64,000 nucleotides of DNA, from assembly GCA_026169535.1 (NCBI GenBank), contig JAPFCU010000061.1, forward strand, positions 39,538 through 103,537, in the 5' to 3' direction. Within the stretch, counting starts at the first letter, position 1. Every line of letters begins with the position of its first letter. The position numbers were made by a program, and so were the translations under genes. The notes below the pieces were generated by a model. It was not told the origin of the DNA. It saw nothing but the letters and a program-made list of their open reading frames with translations, and searched no databases. Shown piece by piece: positions 33,765 to 47,454 of the stretch. The stretch is from Blautia sp. Lineage in GTDB: Bacteria > Bacillota > Clostridia > Lachnospirales > Lachnospiraceae.

Positions 33765-36212
33765 ATGAAGTTTAAATGGAGTACAGGATCTTCAAATAAT
33801 GGAGATGTTCTGGTTTCCGTGATTGTTCCCGTATGTAATGTGGCAAAATATCTGCCCAATTGTCTGGACAGTATTTGTGGGCAGACCTTGAGTAATATTG
33901 AGATCATCTGTGTAGATGACTGCTCCAGAGATTCCTCTGCAGAAATATTGAAGGATTATGTAGCCAGGGATTCCAGGGTCATTCCTATATATCACAGCGA
34001 AAATTTAAGTACCTCTCAGGCAAGAAAAGATGGAGTGGCTGCATCCCGTGGAAAATATGTCATGTTTGTTGACGGAGATGACGAGCTGCATCCCCAGGCC
34101 TGTGAAATAGCTTACAGGGCAATAGAAAAATACCATACAGATATGGTTCAGTTTGGTACAGAGATCGTCAATTGTGCCGGCGTGCCTAAAGAACGTATCG
34201 AAATGAATCAGAAACTGCTGGAACCATATATGGAAGGTGAGATCAGCGAAGAAAATCTTATCGGATCCTGCTGGATAGAGAAACTTTTTGGATACAGTCT
34301 TTGGAACAAGATTTACAAGGGAGATATATGCCGCAGGGCATTTCAGCAGGTAAAAGATGGTTCTTTTCCAAAAGCACAGGACCTGTATGCATTTTTTCTG
34401 ATCGCATACAATTCCAGAAGCTACAGAGGAATTGAGGAACAGCTGTATCGGTATAAATTCGGGCTTGGGGTTACCGGCAGTAATTATATATCAACTGCTA
34501 AATTTGATGTTCTTCTCACAGAAAAAAAAGTATGGGAAGCATTGGTGGAGTTTGCAGAGCAGCAGGGAGAACTGGAAAAATATCAGTCAGTTCTTGATAC
34601 CATCGCTGATCATTTTCTTGGGGACTGTACAGGACGCTGGGCCAGAAATCTTCAGATAGAAAATCTGTCGGAAGCATTTCAGCATCTCGTTGATGTCTGG
34701 GGAATGGATAAGGTGATCAGTAAGCTTGCAGAACAGAACTGGGAGAAAGCTGCTGGTGTTGCAGAGAAGCTTGCACAGGTGGAATTGTTTACACATAAGA
34801 AACATATTTCAGGTTATCCGAGAACAGTGGCAATGTATTACCGTTCGATCAAAAATGGGGGTGCCCAGAGGGTTGCGGCTGAGCTGTGTAATATTTGGGC
34901 AGGAATGGCAGATGAAGCAGGAAATCCGCTGTACAAGGTGATCCTGATCACAGACGAGGAGGAAGAAAAGAATTCAATCAAGGAATATTCCTTGGATCTC
35001 CGTGTAAAAAGAGACTGTATTCCTGCTGTTACAAAATCGACAGAAGGGCTGTATTCCAGGCGATATCAGGCGTGGAAACGGGTGATCCGGGAACATGGGA
35101 TCGATATTGTTGTAACTGGAATGTGGGTGGATCCCTGTATTTTATGGGACATACTCAGTGTAAAAGGACAGCCGTCTCATCCGGCTTTTGTAATACACTG
35201 TCATAGTTTTACCTGTGCACCATATCGTTTTATGGGAGATAAGTTTGCTGAGCTGATCTATGATTACAATCTCAGCAATGGGGTTGTAACCTTATCAGAG
35301 GCAGATCAGAGACTGGTCAGCTGCTTTACCGATTATTCAAAATGTATATCTAATCCGATTTCTTTTACTGTGGATTCTACTGTGATAACAGAAAGAAAAG
35401 AAAATACAATTGTATGGGCCGGCAGGATTTCGCCGGAGAAACAGCCTTTTGATGCAGCGTATATGATGGCTCATGTAGTAAAAAAAATACCGAATGCCAG
35501 ATTATATATGATCGGCCAGGGAAATGAAAATGTCAGTAGAGAACTGGAAGATCTGATCGAACAGCTGGGAATACAGGATAATCTTATTTTGACCGGATTT
35601 ACTTCAGAAGTAGAAAAATATTACAGTACGGCATCTGTATTTGTGGGAACATCCGAATATGAAGGCTTTTCTATGGTGTTCTGCGAGGCAATGGCTCATG
35701 GAGTTCCTGTAGTGACTTATGATCTTCCATGGCTTACCCTGACAAGAGATGGAAGAGGAATTATTTCTGTACCTCAGAAGCGCCCGGATCTTCTTGCAAA
35801 GGAGGTAATAAAACTCCTTGAAGATCCGAAATTGGGAGAGGAGATTGGTCTGAAGGGACGGGAACAGGTGGAAGGCCTGGAAAAAACAGATCTTGGAGAG
35901 CAGTGGGACAGCTTTTTTACAGAAATATCTGCAGAAGGAGAAGGAAAGCAAAACCGAAATTCGGACGAAGTAGAGGCTGTACTGCTGAAATACATGACCT
36001 TATATGCAAAAATAGGAAAAGATACGAAAATAGAAAATCTGGAAAAAAGGATACAGTCTCTTCGCCGTACAAATAAAAAATTAAAAGAAAAAAATAAAGC
36101 TGTAAAAAGGACTGTGACCTTCCGGATAGGAAAAGCTATTATGTTTGTACCCAGATTAACTGTAAAATTGTTGAAATCTCTGATTGGGAAAGAGAAAAAG
36201 AAAGAGGGATAA
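33765..36212 (+). CDS. Bifunctional GT2 + GT4 glycosyltransferase
   Basis: VSVIVPVCN/VDD/FVDGDD (GT2); GGAQRV, AGRISPEK, EGFSMVFCEAMAHG (GT4 EX7E). Confidence 0.9.
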   Translation: MKFKWSTGSSNNGDVLVSVIVPVCNVAKYLPNCLDSICGQTLSNIEIICVDDCSRDSSAEILKDYVARDSRVIPIYHSENLSTSQARKDGVAASRGKYVMFVDGDDELHPQACEIAYRAIEKYHTDMVQFGTEIVNCAGVPKERIEMNQKLLEPYMEGEISEENLIGSCWIEKLFGYSLWNKIYKGDICRRAFQQVKDGSFPKAQDLYAFFLIAYNSRSYRGIEEQLYRYKFGLGVTGSNYISTAKFDVLLTEKKVWEALVEFAEQQGELEKYQSVLDTIADHFLGDCTGRWARNLQIENLSEAFQHLVDVWGMDKVISKLAEQNWEKAAGVAEKLAQVELFTHKKHISGYPRTVAMYYRSIKNGGAQRVAAELCNIWAGMADEAGNPLYKVILITDEEEEKNSIKEYSLDLRVKRDCIPAVTKSTEGLYSRRYQAWKRVIREHGIDIVVTGMWVDPCILWDILSVKGQPSHPAFVIHCHSFTCAPYRFMGDKFAELIYDYNLSNGVVTLSEADQRLVSCFTDYSKCISNPISFTVDSTVITERKENTIVWAGRISPEKQPFDAAYMMAHVVKKIPNARLYMIGQGNENVSRELEDLIEQLGIQDNLILTGFTSEVEKYYSTASVFVGTSEYEGFSMVFCEAMAHGVPVVTYDLPWLTLTRDGRGIISVPQKRPDLLAKEVIKLLEDPKLGEEIGLKGREQVEGLEKTDLGEQWDSFFTEISAEGEGKQNRNSDEVEAVLLKYMTLYAKIGKDTKIENLEKRIQSLRRTNKKLKEKNKAVKRTVTFRIGKAIMFVPRLTVKLLKSLIGKEKKKEG

Positions 36213-36213
36213 T

Positions 36214-37598
36214 ATGAAACAGGAGACAATGGGGAAAAAAATTCTGATTTTCTTAACGGTTCTTGCAGCTGTGTTCTTGTTTGGCGGCAGACCTGCAGAG
36301 GCGGCTCCTGCAAAGTATAAAGTTGTTTTTGCAGATTCCAAAGGAAAAGTATCCTCAGAAAGGTTTCGAAAATGGGCATGCAAGGCAGAAAAAAACACTT
36401 GTATTAATCTTCCGGAGGTTTCTGCATCCGGGTATCGCTACTACTGGGTACTTAAAACAGGCCAAAAAGAAAAGTTTTATGATCCGGGAGAACGCTTTCG
36501 GGTAAAAGAAAATACAAAATTTTATCTTTACAGATATAAACTGTATCAGGTGAGATTTTACACTCATGATGGAAAGCGGGAATATATTTCAAAAAGAAAA
36601 TTACTGAATAAAAGGCAGTCTGTTACACTTCCTTCTGTGCCGGGAGGAAGTACTTATAAGGGGATAGGCTGGACAAGTACAGTAAACGGAAGGTATGTCA
36701 GGAAGCCTGGAACCAAGACCGCTGTAACCGGAAATATGAAATTTTATGCTGCAGTAGAAAAGACATCCTCTGTAACACTGAGATATTCCAATGGAAAATT
36801 ATATCGAAGGATTTATACATCATCACAGCAGGTTCCGTCATTTCCGGCAGTAGGTCTGAGAAATGGTGATATGGTCCTGGGATGGTCAAGAGAAAAGGGA
36901 AAGACTGTGAATCCGGAGTATATGACCGGAGACGGGATTCCCTCAAAAACAGGAACTTATTATATGGTAACCTTTCCGAAGGAAAGTGACAGGAAGCCCT
37001 CCAGTCTGTATATGCCCAATCGATATGACAGAGTATACTGGGTAGGGGATTCCAGAACAGTGGGGATTGCAGGCCTTATTAAAAAAGATGTTTCTCCAAA
37101 TGTCAGCTTTATCTGTAAAGGAAGCCAGGGACTGGAATGGTTCAGAAAAACTGCATTTAAACAGTTGTACTCTCAGGTTCGAAACAGACCAAAACAGGAA
37201 AAAAAGGCTGTGATCATTAATTTAGGGGTAAATGATCTTTATAATATCAATGCTTACCTCAGGGTTATGCCGGAATATGCCAGAAAATTAAAAGCTTATA
37301 ACTGTAAAATGTATTATATGTCTGTAAATCCGGTAAACAGTGCGATGATGAGAAATTTTACCCATCGAAATCCATACAGATCAGAAAAAAAGTGCATGAT
37401 TTTAACCAGAAGATTTACAAAGGGCTTTGTACAGGAAAATCAAAAACATTTACTTATATTGACTGCTGCAGTTATCTGGAAAGAAAAGGATGGATCAGTA
37501 ATCGTTACGATGGAGGAATATTGGATGGGCTTCATTATTCCAATGCTACATCTTTGAAAATCTATCAGTATGGTATGAAAATGCTGGATAAAAAATGA
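36214..37598 (+). pseudogene. Secreted SGNH/GDSL hydrolase with N-terminal repeats, split by a 1-nt frameshift (may be programmed, phase-variable or an error)
   Basis: GDSRT, GSQG, NLGVND in frame 36214-; DGLHY in ORF 37392-37598; continuity with paralogue 39178-40563 restored at GAAAAAAAG (37384-37392). Confidence 0.8.
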
Positions 37599-39177: not shown

Positions 39178-40563
39178 ATGAAACGAATTTCAGGTAAATG
39201 GAAAGGTACATTTTTTCTGCTAGTCTTATCCGCATTTTTAGTCTGGGGAGGAAGCAGAGAGGTATCTGCGGCATCCAAATGCAAAGTGGTGTTTGCAAAT
39301 GCCCAGGGAGTGGTATCTACACAGACTTATCGCAACTGGGCCAGGACTGTAGAGGCAGGAGACTGGATCAAGCTTCCTAAATATTCGCAGTCAGGATACA
39401 GATGCTATTGGGTGCTGAAAAATGGAAATAAGACCTATAAATATAATCCGGGTGCTAATTATAGGATAACTAAGAATACAAAGTTCTGTCTTTACCGTTA
39501 TAAGCTGTATAATGTATGCTTTTATACAGAAAATGGTAAAAAAGAATACCTTAGTATGAGGGAACAGGCAATTAAGGGACAATACATCACTCTTCCTTCT
39601 GTTCCCCATGGAACTTCCAATAAAGGACTGGGCTGGTCTACTACAGTAAGAGGGAAAACTTATAAAAAAGCTGGTACCAAGGTAAAAGTTACCGGAAATA
39701 TGAGATTTTATCCGATTACACAGAAGATCACAGGGGTGAACCTGAGAGCATATAATGGAAAACTCTGGAAAGTGGTTCCTACCGATTCCGGGAAGAATCC
39801 GGTCTTTCCATCGGTAAATCTTGGAAGCGGAAATATGTGTCTTGGATGGTCGAGGACAAAGGGTCAGACTTCCAAACCGGAATATCTTGCCGGAGACAGA
39901 ATTCCGTCAAAATCCGGGAATTACTATATGGTAGTTTTTGGGAAGCATATGGATAAAGCGCCTACCGGTGTACGGAAACCGGAAAACCATGATGTGGTAT
40001 ATTTTGTAGGAGATTCCAGGACAATGGGAATGGCCCGTGCTCTTGGCAGCTCAGCTCCGGCAAATGTGAAATTTATTTATAAGGTTGGAGAAGGCCTGGA
40101 CTGGTTTAAAAAGACAGGCTACAATACTTTGAGAAGTAATGTATGCAAACAGTCGAAGAACAGCAGGATTGCTGTTGTGATCAATCTGGGGGCAAATGAT
40201 CTGCGCAATTACAGCGGATATACCAAATACATGCAGGCAGTTGCCAGAGACTTGAAAAAATATCGTAAAAACTGCGATATGTATTATATGTCAGTGAATC
40301 CGGTGAACAGCGCAATGATCCGCAGCTATTTAGGATGGACCAGCAGAACGGAAAATCAGGTTAAAAGTATAAATAATACACTGAAATCTGCTTTATGCAG
40401 CGGATCCAGAAGAACCTATACTTATATTGACACCTGTTCTTTCCTTCAGAGATATGGATGGATCAGCAGAGAAGGTCATGATGGACTTTGCGATGGAGTA
40501 CATTATTCAGATGCGACGTCTCTTCGGATTTATGACTATTGTATGAAAATATTGAATAGATAA
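39178..40563 (+). CDS. Secreted SGNH/GDSL hydrolase with N-terminal repeats (intact paralogue)
   Basis: GDSRT, GEG, NLGAND, DGVHY; colinear with 36214-37598. Confidence 0.85.
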   Translation: MKRISGKWKGTFFLLVLSAFLVWGGSREVSAASKCKVVFANAQGVVSTQTYRNWARTVEAGDWIKLPKYSQSGYRCYWVLKNGNKTYKYNPGANYRITKNTKFCLYRYKLYNVCFYTENGKKEYLSMREQAIKGQYITLPSVPHGTSNKGLGWSTTVRGKTYKKAGTKVKVTGNMRFYPITQKITGVNLRAYNGKLWKVVPTDSGKNPVFPSVNLGSGNMCLGWSRTKGQTSKPEYLAGDRIPSKSGNYYMVVFGKHMDKAPTGVRKPENHDVVYFVGDSRTMGMARALGSSAPANVKFIYKVGEGLDWFKKTGYNTLRSNVCKQSKNSRIAVVINLGANDLRNYSGYTKYMQAVARDLKKYRKNCDMYYMSVNPVNSAMIRSYLGWTSRTENQVKSINNTLKSALCSGSRRTYTYIDTCSFLQRYGWISREGHDGLCDGVHYSDATSLRIYDYCMKILNR

Positions 40564-40568
40564 ACGTG

Positions 40569-40603
40569 AAAAGGACAGACTGGTAAAAGGTCTGTCTTTT
40601 TTT
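40569..40603 (+). terminator. Terminator of SGNH gene
   Basis: AAAAGGACAGAC ... GTCTGTCTTTTTTT. Confidence 0.8.
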
Positions 40604-40625
40604 GTTTTGGACAAAGAAAAGCAAC

Positions 40626-40665
40626 AAAAAGAGCCATCAGATTATTTTTTCTGCTGGCTCTTTTT
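40626..40665 (-). terminator. Second terminator, serving the minus-strand small transcript
   Basis: Minus strand AAAAAGAGCCAGCAG-AAAAAATAAT-CTGATGGCTCTTTTT. Confidence 0.75.
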
Positions 40666-40732
40666 ACTGTTCATTGTCCAATGGACTTTTCCTCCTTATT
40701 AATTTTTATAAAACAAAAATGAATTTAAAACT

Positions 40733-40862
40733 TTACGTTCTCGGTGGTCCGTACCTTCCTTTCTTTTAATATATTAGGTGTTTCTATACTGTTTCTGGTG
40801 GTCTGTACCTCCTTCTGGTAAATTTGGATGATCACTTATGTTTTCGGTGGTCTCACTCCTTT
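40733..40862 (-). repeat. Three interspaced degenerate direct repeats
   Basis: AAGGAGTGAGACCACCGAAAAC, AAGGAGGTACAGACCACCAGAAAC, AAGGAAGGTACGGACCACCGAGAAC; + strand GGTGGTC at 40846, 40797, 40743. Confidence 0.85.
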
Positions 40863-40898
40863 TTGTTTATTTCTAAGTTCCTTTTGTTTTATGTATTT

Positions 40899-40927
40899 AA
40901 TATAACAGATAAATATGATTATGTCAA
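40899..40927 (-). promoter_or_regulatory. Strong sigma-A promoter
   Basis: TTGACA (40927-40922), 17 nt, TATATT (40904-40899) with TGn extension; AT-rich upstream region. Confidence 0.8.
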
Positions 40928-41119
40928 TAAGAAAAAAGAAAAAATATAAATAAATTTTATTAAAACAGTAAAAATAGACTACAGAATAAAATAAACTGAA
41001 AATTATAAGCGTATTTTATGAATAGGAAAGGAAATACGGGAGAAGATAAGATTAGCGCCGATGTACGGGAAGTGTATTTTCTTGTACAACGGAACTATTA
41101 ATTCTCAGGAGGTAAAAAT

Positions 41120-42469
41120 ATGCTGCGTTATTTGCCTGTACGAAGAGTTTATGCAAGACAAGTACTGGATTCCAGGGGAAATCCAACTGTAGAAGCAGAA
41201 GTGACCATAGGGGAAGGGATCATGGGCATCAATGGGTACACAGCCAGAGCTATGGTACCCTCCGGGGCATCTACCGGGAGATTTGAGGCAGTAGAACTTC
41301 GAGACGGAGATAAAGGCAAGTATTTGGGGCTTAGTGTAGAAAAAGCTGTGAATAATGTGAATACAAAGCTTGCAGAAGCTATATTAGGAGAAAATGCACT
41401 GGATCAGATGAATATAGACCGGCTTCTTATTGAGGCAGACGGTACAGAAAACAAGAGCAGCGCAGGTGCTAACGCTGTCCTCAGTGTTTCTATGGCTGTG
41501 GCAAGGGCGGCGGCAAAGGCTCTTAGGATACCTCTTTATCAGTATATTGGAGGATGTCATACAAAACAGATGCCGGTCCCCATGATGAATATTCTGAACG
41601 GAGGTAAGCACGCAGATAATACAGTAGATCTTCAGGAATTTATGATCATGCCCTGCGGAGCAGAAGATTTTGCTCAGGGTCTGCAGATGTGTGTGGAAAT
41701 TTATCAGCATCTGAAAATCATTCTGAAAGAGAAAAATCTGTCTACCGCTGTGGGAGATGAAGGCGGGTTTGCACCGGATCTTTCGGATTCCAGAGATGTA
41801 TTAGCCCTGCTGGTCCAGGCTTCAGAACATGCGGGATATCATCCGGGAAAAGATGTGATGATCGCTATAGATGCAGCTGCCAGTGAACTTTATGATAAAG
41901 AAAAAGGTGTGTATTATTTCCCGGGAGAAAGTCAGATGAAGGGCAGAGAAATACTCAGGGATTCTGCAGAGATGATACAATATTATGAAGGTCTTTTGGA
42001 TGAATTTCCGGTTATCTCTATCGAGGATGGATTGGAAGAAGATGATTGGGAAGGGTGGAAAAAAATGACAGAGTGTCTGGGAGACAGGATCCAGCTGGTA
42101 GGAGATGATCTTTTTGTTACTAACCAGAAGCGTCTTGCCTGTGGAATCAAACTGGGGGCGGCAAATGCTGTTCTTATAAAGGTCAACCAGATTGGTACAG
42201 TTACAGAAGCACTGGATGCTGTAAAACTGGCACAGAAAAACGGGTATCGTACAGTGATCTCTCATCGTTCTGGAGAGACGGAGGATACATTTATTGCAGA
42301 TCTGGCAGTGGCGTCAGGAGCAGGGCAGATCAAAACAGGAGCGCCCTGTCGTTCGGACAGAAATGCAAAATATAACCAGCTCCTCAGGATCGCAGAGAAT
42401 CTGGGAGAGCTGGCTGTATATGAAGATCCGTTTATTTCAGGGTGTAATACTGCAGAACCGCACCTTTAA
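41120..42469 (+). CDS. eno: Enolase
   Basis: [49 protein letters not shown]. Confidence 0.96.
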
Positions 42470-44951: not shown

Positions 44952-46970
44952 GTGAGCAGAAAAAAAGTCTGGGAAAAGAAAAAAAAGTTTTCGAAAGGTG
45001 ATCATAAAGTAAAGAAAAAAAATATTAAAAGTCTGGAAAAGATGGGAGTTATAAAAGAGGGAGTCTTCATTGGAAATCCCAGAGGTTTCGGATTTGTGGA
45101 GACTGGTGAAGATGAAGAGGACATCTTTATTCCTGCAGATTCAGTGAACACGGCTCTTCATCAGGATAAGGTTCAGGTTTTGCTGAAAAAAGAGCAGAAG
45201 TCCGGAAAGCGAAGAGAAGGAGTTATACTGAAGATTTTGGAACGAGGTACTGCGGAAGTGGTAGGTACGTTCCAGCGGGAAGGAGACTATGGATTTGTTG
45301 TCTGCGATAATCAGAAGCTTTCCAGGGATATTTATATTTCTGCCAGAAATTCCCATGGTGTCCGTGATGGAGAAAAGGTAGTCGCCCAGATCATAGATTA
45401 TGGAACAGAACGTCGTAAGCCGGAAGGAAAGATCACGGAAGTTCTTGGTAACATCCATGCGCCGGGAACAGATATTTTGGCGATCGTAAAGAGTCTTAAC
45501 ATTCCGTCGGAATTTCCGGTTCGTGTGATGAATCAGGCAATGCGCGTTCCGGATCATGTGCTGGATGCTGACTGGGACGGCAGAGAGGATTTTACGGGGC
45601 TTATGACAGTTACTATCGACGGAGAAGATGCAAAGGATCTGGATGATGCGGTTTCTCTTACAAAAGAAGGGAATATTTATCATCTGGGAGTTCATATTGC
45701 AGATGTGAGCAATTATGTTCAGGGTGGAAGCGCCCTTGATAAAGAAGCATTAAAAAGAGGAACCAGCGTGTATCTGGCAGACCGAGTGATTCCCATGCTT
45801 CCAGAACGTCTTTCCAATGGGATATGTTCTCTGAATCAGGGGGTGGACCGTCTTGCTCTCAGCTGTCTGATGGATATTGACGGGCAGGGAAATATTGTGG
45901 CTCATAAGATCACAGAAAGTGTGATCAGAGTAGACAGACGCATGAGTTATGAACAGGTCCGCAGTATCCTGGAGGATGGAGAGACAGAGACCAGCAGAGA
46001 ATACCGGGAATTTGTCCCCATGTTCTTTCTGATGAGAGAACTGTCTCAGCTGCTGCGCAGCAGAAGGCATCACAGAGGGTCTATTGATTTTGAGTTTCCT
46101 GAAAGTAAAATCATTCTTAACGGTGCAGGACGTGCGATCGATGTACGTCCCTATGAAGCTAACTGTGCTACGGAAATTATTGAAGATTTTATGCTGATGG
46201 CAAATGAGACGGTTGCCAGAGAGTACTGCAAGGGGGAATACCCTTTTGTATACAGAACGCATGAAAATCCAGATCCGGAAAAGGTAGAAGAGCTTCTGAC
46301 GCTTCTTCATCATCAGGGAATCCAGGTACGGAAATCCCGGGAGGAGATCACACCGAAGGAAATCCAGGAAATTCTGGAAAGTATCCAGGGACTTCCAAAT
46401 GAGACAATGATCAGCCGCCTGACGCTGAGAACAATGAAGCAGGCAAAATATACAACAGAATGCAGCGGGCATTTCGGGCTGGCGGCCAGATATTACTGCC
46501 ATTTTACTTCGCCGATCAGGAGATATCCGGATCTGCAGATCCACAGGATCATCAGAGACAACCTTCGAGGCAGACTTCAGAGAGAGGGAAAAACAGAACA
46601 TTACAGAGAGATTTTGGAGGAAGTGGCTCGTCAGTCCAGTGTTTGTGAAAGACGGGCACAGGAGGCAGAAAGAGAATCTGATAAACTGAAAAAGGCAGAG
46701 TATATGTCGTATCATCTGGGAGAAGAATTTGACGGGATTATTTCTGGTGTTACAGGATATGGACTATATGTAGAACTTTCCAATACAGTGGAAGGTCTGG
46801 TCCATGTAACCAGCCTCAGAGATGATTATTATGAGTTTGACCAGGAGGCCTATGAACTGAGGGGCCAGCTGACGAAAAAAATTTATCATCTGGGACAGAA
46901 GGTCCGTGTTCGTGTGGCAGATGCAGATGCCATGAAACGGACAGTAGATTTTACTCTTGCAGAAGAGTAA
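44952..46970 (+). CDS. rnr: Ribonuclease R
   Basis: GFGFV cold-shock domain, [25 protein letters not shown]-terminal S1. Confidence 0.95.
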
Positions 46971-46983
46971 GGAGGAAATGAAA

Positions 46984-47454
46984 ATGGCAAAGAAACAGGG
47001 GATCGGGCTGATCGCAAACAATAAAAAAGCATTTCATGATTATTTTATAGAGGATACTTATGAGGCTGGGATCGCGCTTGCGGGAACGGAGGTAAAATCT
47101 CTTCGCAGCGGAAAATGCAGTATTAAGGAATCTTTTATCAGAGTGGAACGGGGAGAAGTATATATTTATGGGATGCATATCAGCCCATATGAAAAAGGAA
47201 ACATATTCAACAAGGATCCTCTTCGCGTGAGAAAACTTCTTCTCCACAGATATGAGATCAATAAGATTGAGGGAAAACTGAAAGAAAAGGGGCTTACCCT
47301 TGTTCCGTTAAAAGTTTATTTTAAGGACAGTCTTGTTAAGGTGGAAATCGGCATGGCACGAGGAAAGAAGCTTTATGACAAGCGTCAGGACATTGCCAAA
47401 AAAGATCAGAGAAGGGAAGCTGAGAGAGATTTTAAAGTGAAAAATCTTTTCTGA
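46984..47454 (+). CDS. smpB: SsrA-binding protein
   Basis: [30 protein letters not shown]. Confidence 0.97.

Follow-up and report, generated by a model that had tools for sequence, protein, structure and literature searches.

What is encoded in the interval between a GDSL/SGNH gene (39178-40563) and the enolase gene (41120-42469) in Blautia sp. contig JAPFCU010000061.1? The window analysed here is a stretch of 64,000 nucleotides (nt) of that contig (assembly GCA_026169535.1, positions 39,538 to 103,537), and all coordinates refer to it. A first-pass annotation had described, on the minus strand of this interval, an independently transcribed RNA with interspaced Shine-Dalgarno (SD)-GACCACC repeats, and had proposed a multi-site sponge, a decoy for 30S subunits or a precursor cut into short RNAs. 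The element is a real, undescribed RNA family of Lachnospiraceae, and its mechanism we infer below. Its repeat units have the anatomy of translation start sites, lie at least about 50 nt apart and keep no peptide sequence. The RNA is probably engaged by ribosomes, and the chances are about even that the units act as a multi-site dock that parks and buffers small ribosomal subunits. The RNA, its units and its signals are placed as follows.

40928-40970, minus strand: A/T-rich tract upstream of the -35 box, seen in the sequence, with similar tracts before homologous promoters.
40899-40927, minus strand: sigma-70/sigmaA-type promoter, TTGACA-17-TATATT with a TG extension (score of 11/12; homologue alignment).
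40626-40893, minus strand: the RNA, 268 nt, 46% A (contigs of RNA runs; composition).
40882-40892, minus strand: predicted 5' arm of a stem enclosing units 1-3, pairing with 40718-40708.
40836-40863, minus strand: unit 1, with SD, CCA, start slot CCG (40847), then AAA ACA TAA (sequence; stops in register in homologues).
40784-40816, minus strand: unit 2, with SD, CCA, start slot CCA (40798), then GAA ACA GTA TAG (sequence).
40733-40764, minus strand: unit 3, with a bulged extended SD, CCA, start slot CCG (40744), then AGA ACG TAA (sequence).
40708-40718, minus strand: predicted 3' arm of the enclosing stem.
40664-40697, minus strand: unit 4, with SD, CCA and a TTG-started 5-codon reading frame, M-D-N-E-Q-stop (40681-40664; codon exchange in homologues).
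40626-40665, minus strand: intrinsic terminator hairpin, adjoining the last stop codon (sequence, predicted fold, conservation).
40568-40602, plus strand: separate terminator of the convergent GDSL/SGNH gene (39178-40563), in the flank and outside the RNA (terminator scan, family search).

The promoter proposed in the first-pass annotation is the best of the four sites detected, and its -35 and TG/-10 columns are invariant across 10 aligned homologues. The tract upstream of it would be UP-element-like, and of the 80 family loci fetched, 77 have a promoter-like site ahead of them with an A/T-rich tract next to it on the upstream side, a count made without a control. The dedicated terminator, a hairpin with a U-tract, had likewise been correctly set apart from that of the SGNH gene: it is predicted to fold and is conserved in relatives, and it is missing from the list of a simple scanner because its loop is longer than the scanner limit.

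Seven RNA or probable-RNA sequencing runs and one run of undetermined kind, all selected as holders of 40560-41000, were mapped onto 39200-42400. In six of the seven, from five studies, the sole contig at least 99% alike lies fully inside 40667-40893 (X6, X13 and X14 are recorded as RNA; X7, X8 and X10 are guessed to be RNA). X5, which yielded pieces from either flank and over the promoter (40880-41060), was left out of the support, and X15, whose kind is unrecorded, covers the entire stretch and is DNA-like. The RNA is transcribed as a discrete unit. The X10 contig (depth 3.8) stops at 40893 and then runs into a loose, adapter-like end of 22 letters, presumably a template-switch adapter; in this single contig the tail would mark a minus-strand 5' end at 40893, within one base of the start predicted near 40892. 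RNA contigs of 158-211 nt each span several units, and uncut molecules therefore exist. In small RNA libraries from sludge, biofilm, wastewater and single organisms the RNA assembled alone, a hint that it is highly abundant or stable. Abundance is suggested rather than measured, because the runs were chosen as holders of the region, and for the same reason non-coverage of the flanking genes was not used to rank expression.

A DNA search detected the element in 15 of 24 same-genus genomes (E <=1.6e-13), and weakly in a sixteenth. The exact unit pattern was retrieved from at least 120 GTDB records, mostly with Lachnospiraceae titles (some titles, unchecked, are unclassified or name other groups). 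With two mismatches allowed, it was found in 75 of the 200 Lachnospiraceae genera sampled, against 4 of 201 for a reversed control. Other families of the class yielded 8 of 291 genomes against 6 in the reversed control, which is background, and two hits inspected were not the element. Patterns built on start-codon units gave further members, about a dozen of which were inspected. Across 87 loci the estimated RNA length has a median of 361 nt and extremes of 154 and 910 nt, the number of units per RNA varies from 1 to at least 9, and several genomes carry two loci. The neighbouring genes are unrelated and stand in either orientation; at 25 of 76 loci the downstream open reading frame (ORF) is antiparallel to the RNA. 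No conserved neighbour was found among the 40 of these 76 downstream ORFs that were scanned (25 unrelated families and 15 without a Pfam hit; the scan covered the downstream side). Among mobile carriers, no phage or plasmid record covered 80% of the element, and there were two hits to viral contigs.

None of the 14 weak Rfam 15 matches in the window reaches its gathering threshold. Among 20 homologous loci, Rfam gave one match, Clostridiales-1 in L281 (97.5 bits, 2147-2301), whose overlap with the element is unchecked; some 500 nt separate it from the second unit upstream in that family member. No description of the RNA was found in the open-licence literature, most subscription papers being outside the scope of the search. 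Five motif strings are absent from eight supplementary files of a microbiome RNA survey (PMC8040213), two further files of which may hold the RNA, and a term search of PMC13750123 returned none of five terms, Lachnospiraceae among them. With its own promoter and terminator, its conservation across the family and no Rfam match, the RNA is indeed independent and undescribed, as had been proposed. An array of this kind as a gene in itself is, provisionally, without precedent in Rfam 15 and the open-licence literature; each of its parts has one (rreB, STAB-SD and minigenes). The searches yielded no RNA regulator specific to Lachnospiraceae, a family dominant among gut anaerobes.

What, then, are the units? 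The pattern AAGGN4-12GACCACC occurs three times in the 64-kb window, always in this RNA, against 0.07 expected, and none of 100 shuffles reached three. The three degenerate repeats, 49 and 54 nt apart, and the fourth unit reported by the first-pass annotation are thus well founded, and five AAGGA motifs are visible. The main clue, which that annotation missed, is the register of micro-ORFs: the interval had been said to hold no conventional gene, and it is not ORF-free, since every unit contains an in-frame micro-ORF and that of unit 4 is TTG-led. A unit consists of a purine-rich SD, usually 6 nt, CC(A/G), a start-slot triplet 9 nt after AGG, and an in-frame stop. The slot is occupied by ATG, TTG or GTG, by a near-cognate triplet, or by CCA or CCG, and is followed by 1-5 more codons and the stop; units 1-3 of the window are SDs without a start codon, with CCG or CCA in the slot. 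The SD is AAGGAGG or a one-base-bulged form (AGGAAGG, AGAGAGG or AGCGAGG), and its distance to the slot falls inside the 7-9-nt peak of the genes in G000, the genome carrying this window (89.75% complete).

Among 350 core units, the start slot is CCA in 151, CCG in 92, ATG in 58, TTG in 12, AAG in 10, ACA in 8, ATC in 5, GTG in 4, AAA in 4 and another triplet in 6, the share of CCR (R being A or G) being inflated by the seed patterns. The preceding triplet is CCA in 314, CCG in 34, CCC in 2 and CCT in none, and a CCN triplet precedes the start in just 29 of 1359 G000 genes. Loci of the first set tend to have CCR units on the 5' side, followed by ATG units and, last, by a TTG-, ATG- or GTG-led 5-codon ORF; some loci of the family set begin with ATG units, and in L279 all units in view are ATG-led.

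The register was examined in units whose definition took no account of the stop. Here an in-frame stop was present in 52 of 60 ATG/TTG/GTG units (other frames 30 and 21), 11 of 13 near-cognate units (4 and 2) and 14 of 16 CCN units (2 and 4). In the first locus set the stop was in frame in 56 of 57 ATG units, in all 70 TTG/GTG units and in 64 of 69 non-anchor CCN units (other frames 29 and 34); seed and non-seed units alike keep the stop in register. TTG, GTG and ATG replace one another as start codons, and TAA, TAG and TGA as stops, while the second codon of the terminal ORF is GAT or GAC; judged from sequence, the exchange of starts and stops is the signature of real initiation and termination in the start-codon units. 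The terminal ORF, M-D-x-[I/E/V]-x, is the best conserved, with its stop at codon 6 in 56 of 70 units, and in 50 of 51 cases 15-31 nt separate it from the terminator stem that follows. Its residues 3-5 vary widely, giving 36 peptides among the 70 units, which makes it improbable that the peptide is the product. Lambda bar and other minigenes, with an SD, a start, 1-3 codons and a stop, are single toxic elements; unlike them, the units form a conserved array in the chromosome, and most have a start slot filled by a non-start triplet.

Spacing between the units is constrained as well. None of the 151 gaps between adjacent core units is shorter than 50 nt and 93 measure 50-62 nt (units 1 and 2 of the window are 49 nt apart), while the spacer sequence is free despite this floor. 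The footprint of a 30S initiation complex is of roughly this size.

Structure within the units is less constrained. None of 200 shuffles folds as well as the 267-nt stretch (z -4.2), whose predicted fold includes the terminator and the 5'-end stem. A fold-back of GGAGGU on ACCACC, proposed for units 2 and 3, is recovered in unit 2 and not in unit 3. Among 204 CCN units the closing pair of this hairpin is T-A in 138, T-T in 33 and A-A in 23. The covariation analysis that had been suggested detected no compensatory change, either in the unit hairpins or in the enclosing stem (40882-40892/40718-40708), which is conserved within the genus, and the unit hairpin (GGU/ACC) was rejected as a conserved structure.

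The blocks beside the SD resemble a longer complement of 16S rRNA. The 16S 3' end was taken from five relatives, the G000 assembly being without it; its complement runs on after the SD as TGATCCA and then GCCG, and the G-W-C-C-A block and CCR slot of the units resemble it, with bulges. The predicted duplex gain from 16S nucleotides 5' of the anti-SD has a median of 7.7 kcal/mol in CCR units (n=247) and 5.5 in NTG units (n=74), compared with 1.5 in 1359 G000 genes. Bulges or internal loops interrupt the predicted duplexes of all four window units. The CCA or CCG before the start slot, with CCT in none of 350 units, fits wobble pairing to 16S, although this is partly set by the seed patterns. 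Pairing to the 3' trailer of pre-16S RNA was tried and rejected, the difference being small (gain >1 kcal/mol in 56% of units and 43% of genes).

Start-site anatomy, the spacing floor and the 16S pairing favour the 30S decoy among the options listed in the first-pass annotation, its mechanism being a conjecture built on these features. As a dock, each unit would bind one 30S subunit through the SD and the second block (G-W-C-C-A), complementary to 16S 5' of the anti-SD. Units with ATG, TTG or GTG would initiate and terminate within a few codons, the ribosome still being tethered to the SD, whereas those with CCA or CCG in the start slot (units 1-3 here) would hold the 30S without normal initiation. 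The likely gain would be a pool of spare subunits protected from RNase R at the 16S 3' end, and the bound subunits might stabilise the RNA itself against 5'-3' decay. There are precedents: rreB attaches to the 30S by an extended complement that goes as far as the start codon (PMC5711450), the start-less STAB-SD is described as binding the 30S and blocking RNase J1 (PMC4113751), and an SD oligonucleotide protects the 30S from RNase R in vitro (PMC10901742). If the docking reading is correct, this would be the RNA equivalent of hibernation proteins, a chromosomal RNA with the job of holding several ribosomal subunits. The RNA also offers a natural and mutable test of two questions, whether SD-bound RNA shields the 30S in cells against RNase R and whether a ribosome can start on a proline codon.

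The closest parallels are the small mRNAs rreB and rreR of alphaproteobacteria, which likewise have their own promoter and terminator and a small transcript, and whose function is given as undetermined (PMC5711450). There, too, a weak start codon opens a short ORF and the 16S complement runs past the SD to the start codon, as predicted here; the extension of rreB reaches the first base of its GTG, and the RNA binds the 30S strongly and is weakly translated (PMC5711450). An rre RNA, unlike the present one, has a single perfect complement of 16-17 nt and one conserved ORF of 14-18 amino acids, whereas here the complement is interrupted, and 1 to at least 9 units contain variable ORFs of 2-6 codons, many of them start-less. 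The rre RNAs belong to a different phylum, and the comparison is one of descriptions, not of sequences. STAB-SD of Bacillus thuringiensis cry3A is also described as an SD without a start codon in a Gram-positive bacterium (PMC4113751). It is a single cis element in a 5' untranslated region that protects the gene downstream; here the whole transcript is the array, and the stabilised mRNA is absent, with no long ORF downstream and the transcript ending at a terminator after a 5-codon ORF.

Several observations weigh against docking. A pure dock needs no in-register stop in start-less units, yet 64 of 78 keep one at codon 4, in part through seed selection. On the single-stranded 16S tail alone, the median pairing energies are -13.9 for CCR units and -10.6 for NTG units, against -11.5 for ordinary genes, so that the units gain little over genes there; the additional pairing depends on G-G and on a portion of the helix-45 strand, which may not be free in the mature 30S. 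The best-pairing start-slot triplet, GCC, is found in none of 350 units. GTAC is enriched in the spacers outside the units (255 against 76 expected, in 133 RNAs with the seed masked), which the docking model does not explain. G000 also encodes an HPF-family protein, and overexpression of rreB is reported not to have slowed growth, its authors arguing against simple ribosome titration (PMC5711450). As a side observation, the genes for RNase R (RNB) and smpB lie at 44952-47454 of the window, 4-6.5 kb from the RNA; neither was found among the downstream neighbours scanned in other genera, wider synteny being outside that scan.

The in-register stops are taken up by a second explanation, in which CCA-CCG is decoded as Pro-Pro and the RNA recycles peptidyl-tRNA that has dropped off, or titrates or senses EF-P; we regard it as unlikely. 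Its central step, that SD-tethered ribosomes start on CCA-CCG with a tRNA-Pro that is charged or bears a dropped-off peptide, and terminate after two further residues, is itself rather doubtful. If true, it would amount to RNA-encoded, EF-P-linked recycling of peptidyl-tRNA or completion of proline-stalled chains, with initiation lacking an initiator codon. tRNA-Pro and tRNA-fMet share the D-loop motif read by EF-P (PMC11514478), and these two clients correspond to the two main start-slot classes (CCA and CCG; ATG and TTG). Variation falls at third positions (CCA/CCG; ACA/ACG/ACT), and residues 2-3 vary while ORF length is kept. A P-site aminoacyl-tRNA is reported to be able to reinitiate after drop-off (PMC8934632), and CCA or CCG in the E site slightly slows EF-P release, an effect of codon that is called minor (PMC11514478). 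Pooled units lacking the consensus TAA stop in frame in 21 of 31 cases (other frames 16 and 11; shuffle mean 13.3, p=0.0055, kin included), but a genus-level draw of one unit per locus gives 10 of 16 (6 and 8; p=0.08); decoding is thus less well supported in CCR units than in start-codon units. CCT makes up 29% of the proline codons in G000 but occurs in just 1 of 247 here. An initiator-like tRNA-Pro was not seen in G000, whose tRNA-Pro species are without the three G-C anticodon-stem pairs of the initiator, and we found no precedent for SD-directed starts on proline codons. Pth and EF-P are present in G000 and RqcH in 199 of 200 family genomes, so that no gap needs filling; a role as a replacement for RqcH was likewise rejected, rqcH being missing from G000 only. 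Neither the 16S pairing nor the proline codons give a complete account of CC(A/G).

The spacers bear on a third explanation, a sponge for a GGUAC- or RGUAC-binding protein next to the SD (not CsrA) or for C-rich anti-SD small RNAs, like RosA in Bacillus, which we also hold to be rather doubtful. It would suit a repeated motif in an A-rich, weakly structured RNA, the GTAC excess that persists with the seed masked, and the variable unit number. The (A/G)GTAC in which the spacers of the long members L029, L047, L053 and L119 are rich is possibly a second, protein-read motif or the trace of decayed units. The RNA resembles CsrB, CsrC, RsmY and RsmZ in being A-rich, with repeated purine motifs and its own promoter and terminator, and it gives a weak CsrC match (20.2 bits against a gathering threshold of 61). 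The likeness to CsrB/RsmZ suggested by the first-pass annotation does not extend further: there are no covarying hairpins, the SD and spacer block of 89 of 332 core units are devoid of GGA, and the element is independent of csrA, which was found in neither G000 nor G010, being present in 45 of 95 csrA-negative and 30 of 105 csrA-positive family genomes. Hfq was not found in G000 either. Such absences from G000 are weak evidence because this genome also lacks rqcH, a gene that 199 of 200 relatives have. A search of G000 gave no antisense partner. Target mRNAs with the motif at their start were rejected: in 36 matches examined (from 30 loci returned, of 54 matches in 43 genomes), the motif and start codon head an ORF of at most 12 codons in 33 and a real gene in one, so that no target regulon shares the motif. 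The 50-nt floor and the register with exchange of starts and stops would not be expected of a protein sponge.

Could the products matter instead, the last ORF encoding a signalling or regulatory pentapeptide or attenuating its own terminator? The conservation of this ORF, its stop position and its distance from the terminator stem speak for such a role; the divergence of residues 3-5, the lack of an export signal, and downstream genes that are unrelated and often convergent, as in the window, make it quite improbable. As in the mRNA-like domain of transfer-messenger RNA (tmRNA), a short ORF lies in a stable RNA, and the terminal DNEQ is similar to the start of the G000 tag, ANEQYALAA. Unlike tmRNA, the RNA has neither a tRNA-like domain nor pseudoknots, and the matches are of 7-8 nt. 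Ancestry from tmRNA or mimicry of its tag was rejected (p=0.016 over 25 genomes and 0.011 within the genus, kin included; 0.14 with one per genus). Loose ORF and tag pairs like that of the G000 tmRNA (L307) were also seen in G018 and G223.

A precursor cut into guide or antitoxin RNAs of about 50 nt, whether CRISPR-like or type III toxin-antitoxin-like, has a repeat-spacer look and the near-tandem arrays of about 52-54 nt in Anaerobutyricum hallii (L070) in its favour and is very improbable, since the repeats are degenerate and the spacers, unlike those of CRISPR, are orthologous and alignable across relatives and species, no phage match went beyond short AT-rich pieces, no cas6 was found in G000 (the one cas family searched, in a genome 89.75% complete, which makes the absence weak), no toxin or cas family occurred among the 40 downstream ORFs scanned (15 without a Pfam hit), no toxin gene directly follows the array as it would in ToxI, CptI or TenpI systems (a convergent GDSL gene does here, and 25 of 76 loci have a downstream ORF antiparallel to the RNA), and the RNA contigs of 158-211 nt are uncut, while nested 5' ends could also come from ribosome roadblocks.

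The window also encodes two similar, secreted-looking proteins of about 460 amino acids (36184-37557 and 39178-40563), of which only the second matches a GDSL lipase in Pfam. This second copy looks inserted, because a polysaccharide deacetylase gene directly follows the RNA in several relatives. In G000, aragorn reported a tRNA-Ile(tat) with an atypical D-arm, which may be a mis-assignment, two tRNA-Leu(aag) and a tRNA-SeC. Some family members have expanded. L070 of A. hallii, well suited as an experimental model, contains a recent-looking tandem expansion of eight CCR/ACA units, and units matching this array are joined to unrelated coding-like sequence in L142, a 1318-nt contig of a viral collection; L142 looks chimeric, which suggests that the RNA co-assembles in metatranscriptomes. 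A recent-looking tandem expansion is also seen in L279 (G215), with at least nine ATG-led units, and in L184 (G121) tandem repeats of about 20 nt fill several hundred bases upstream of the terminal unit.
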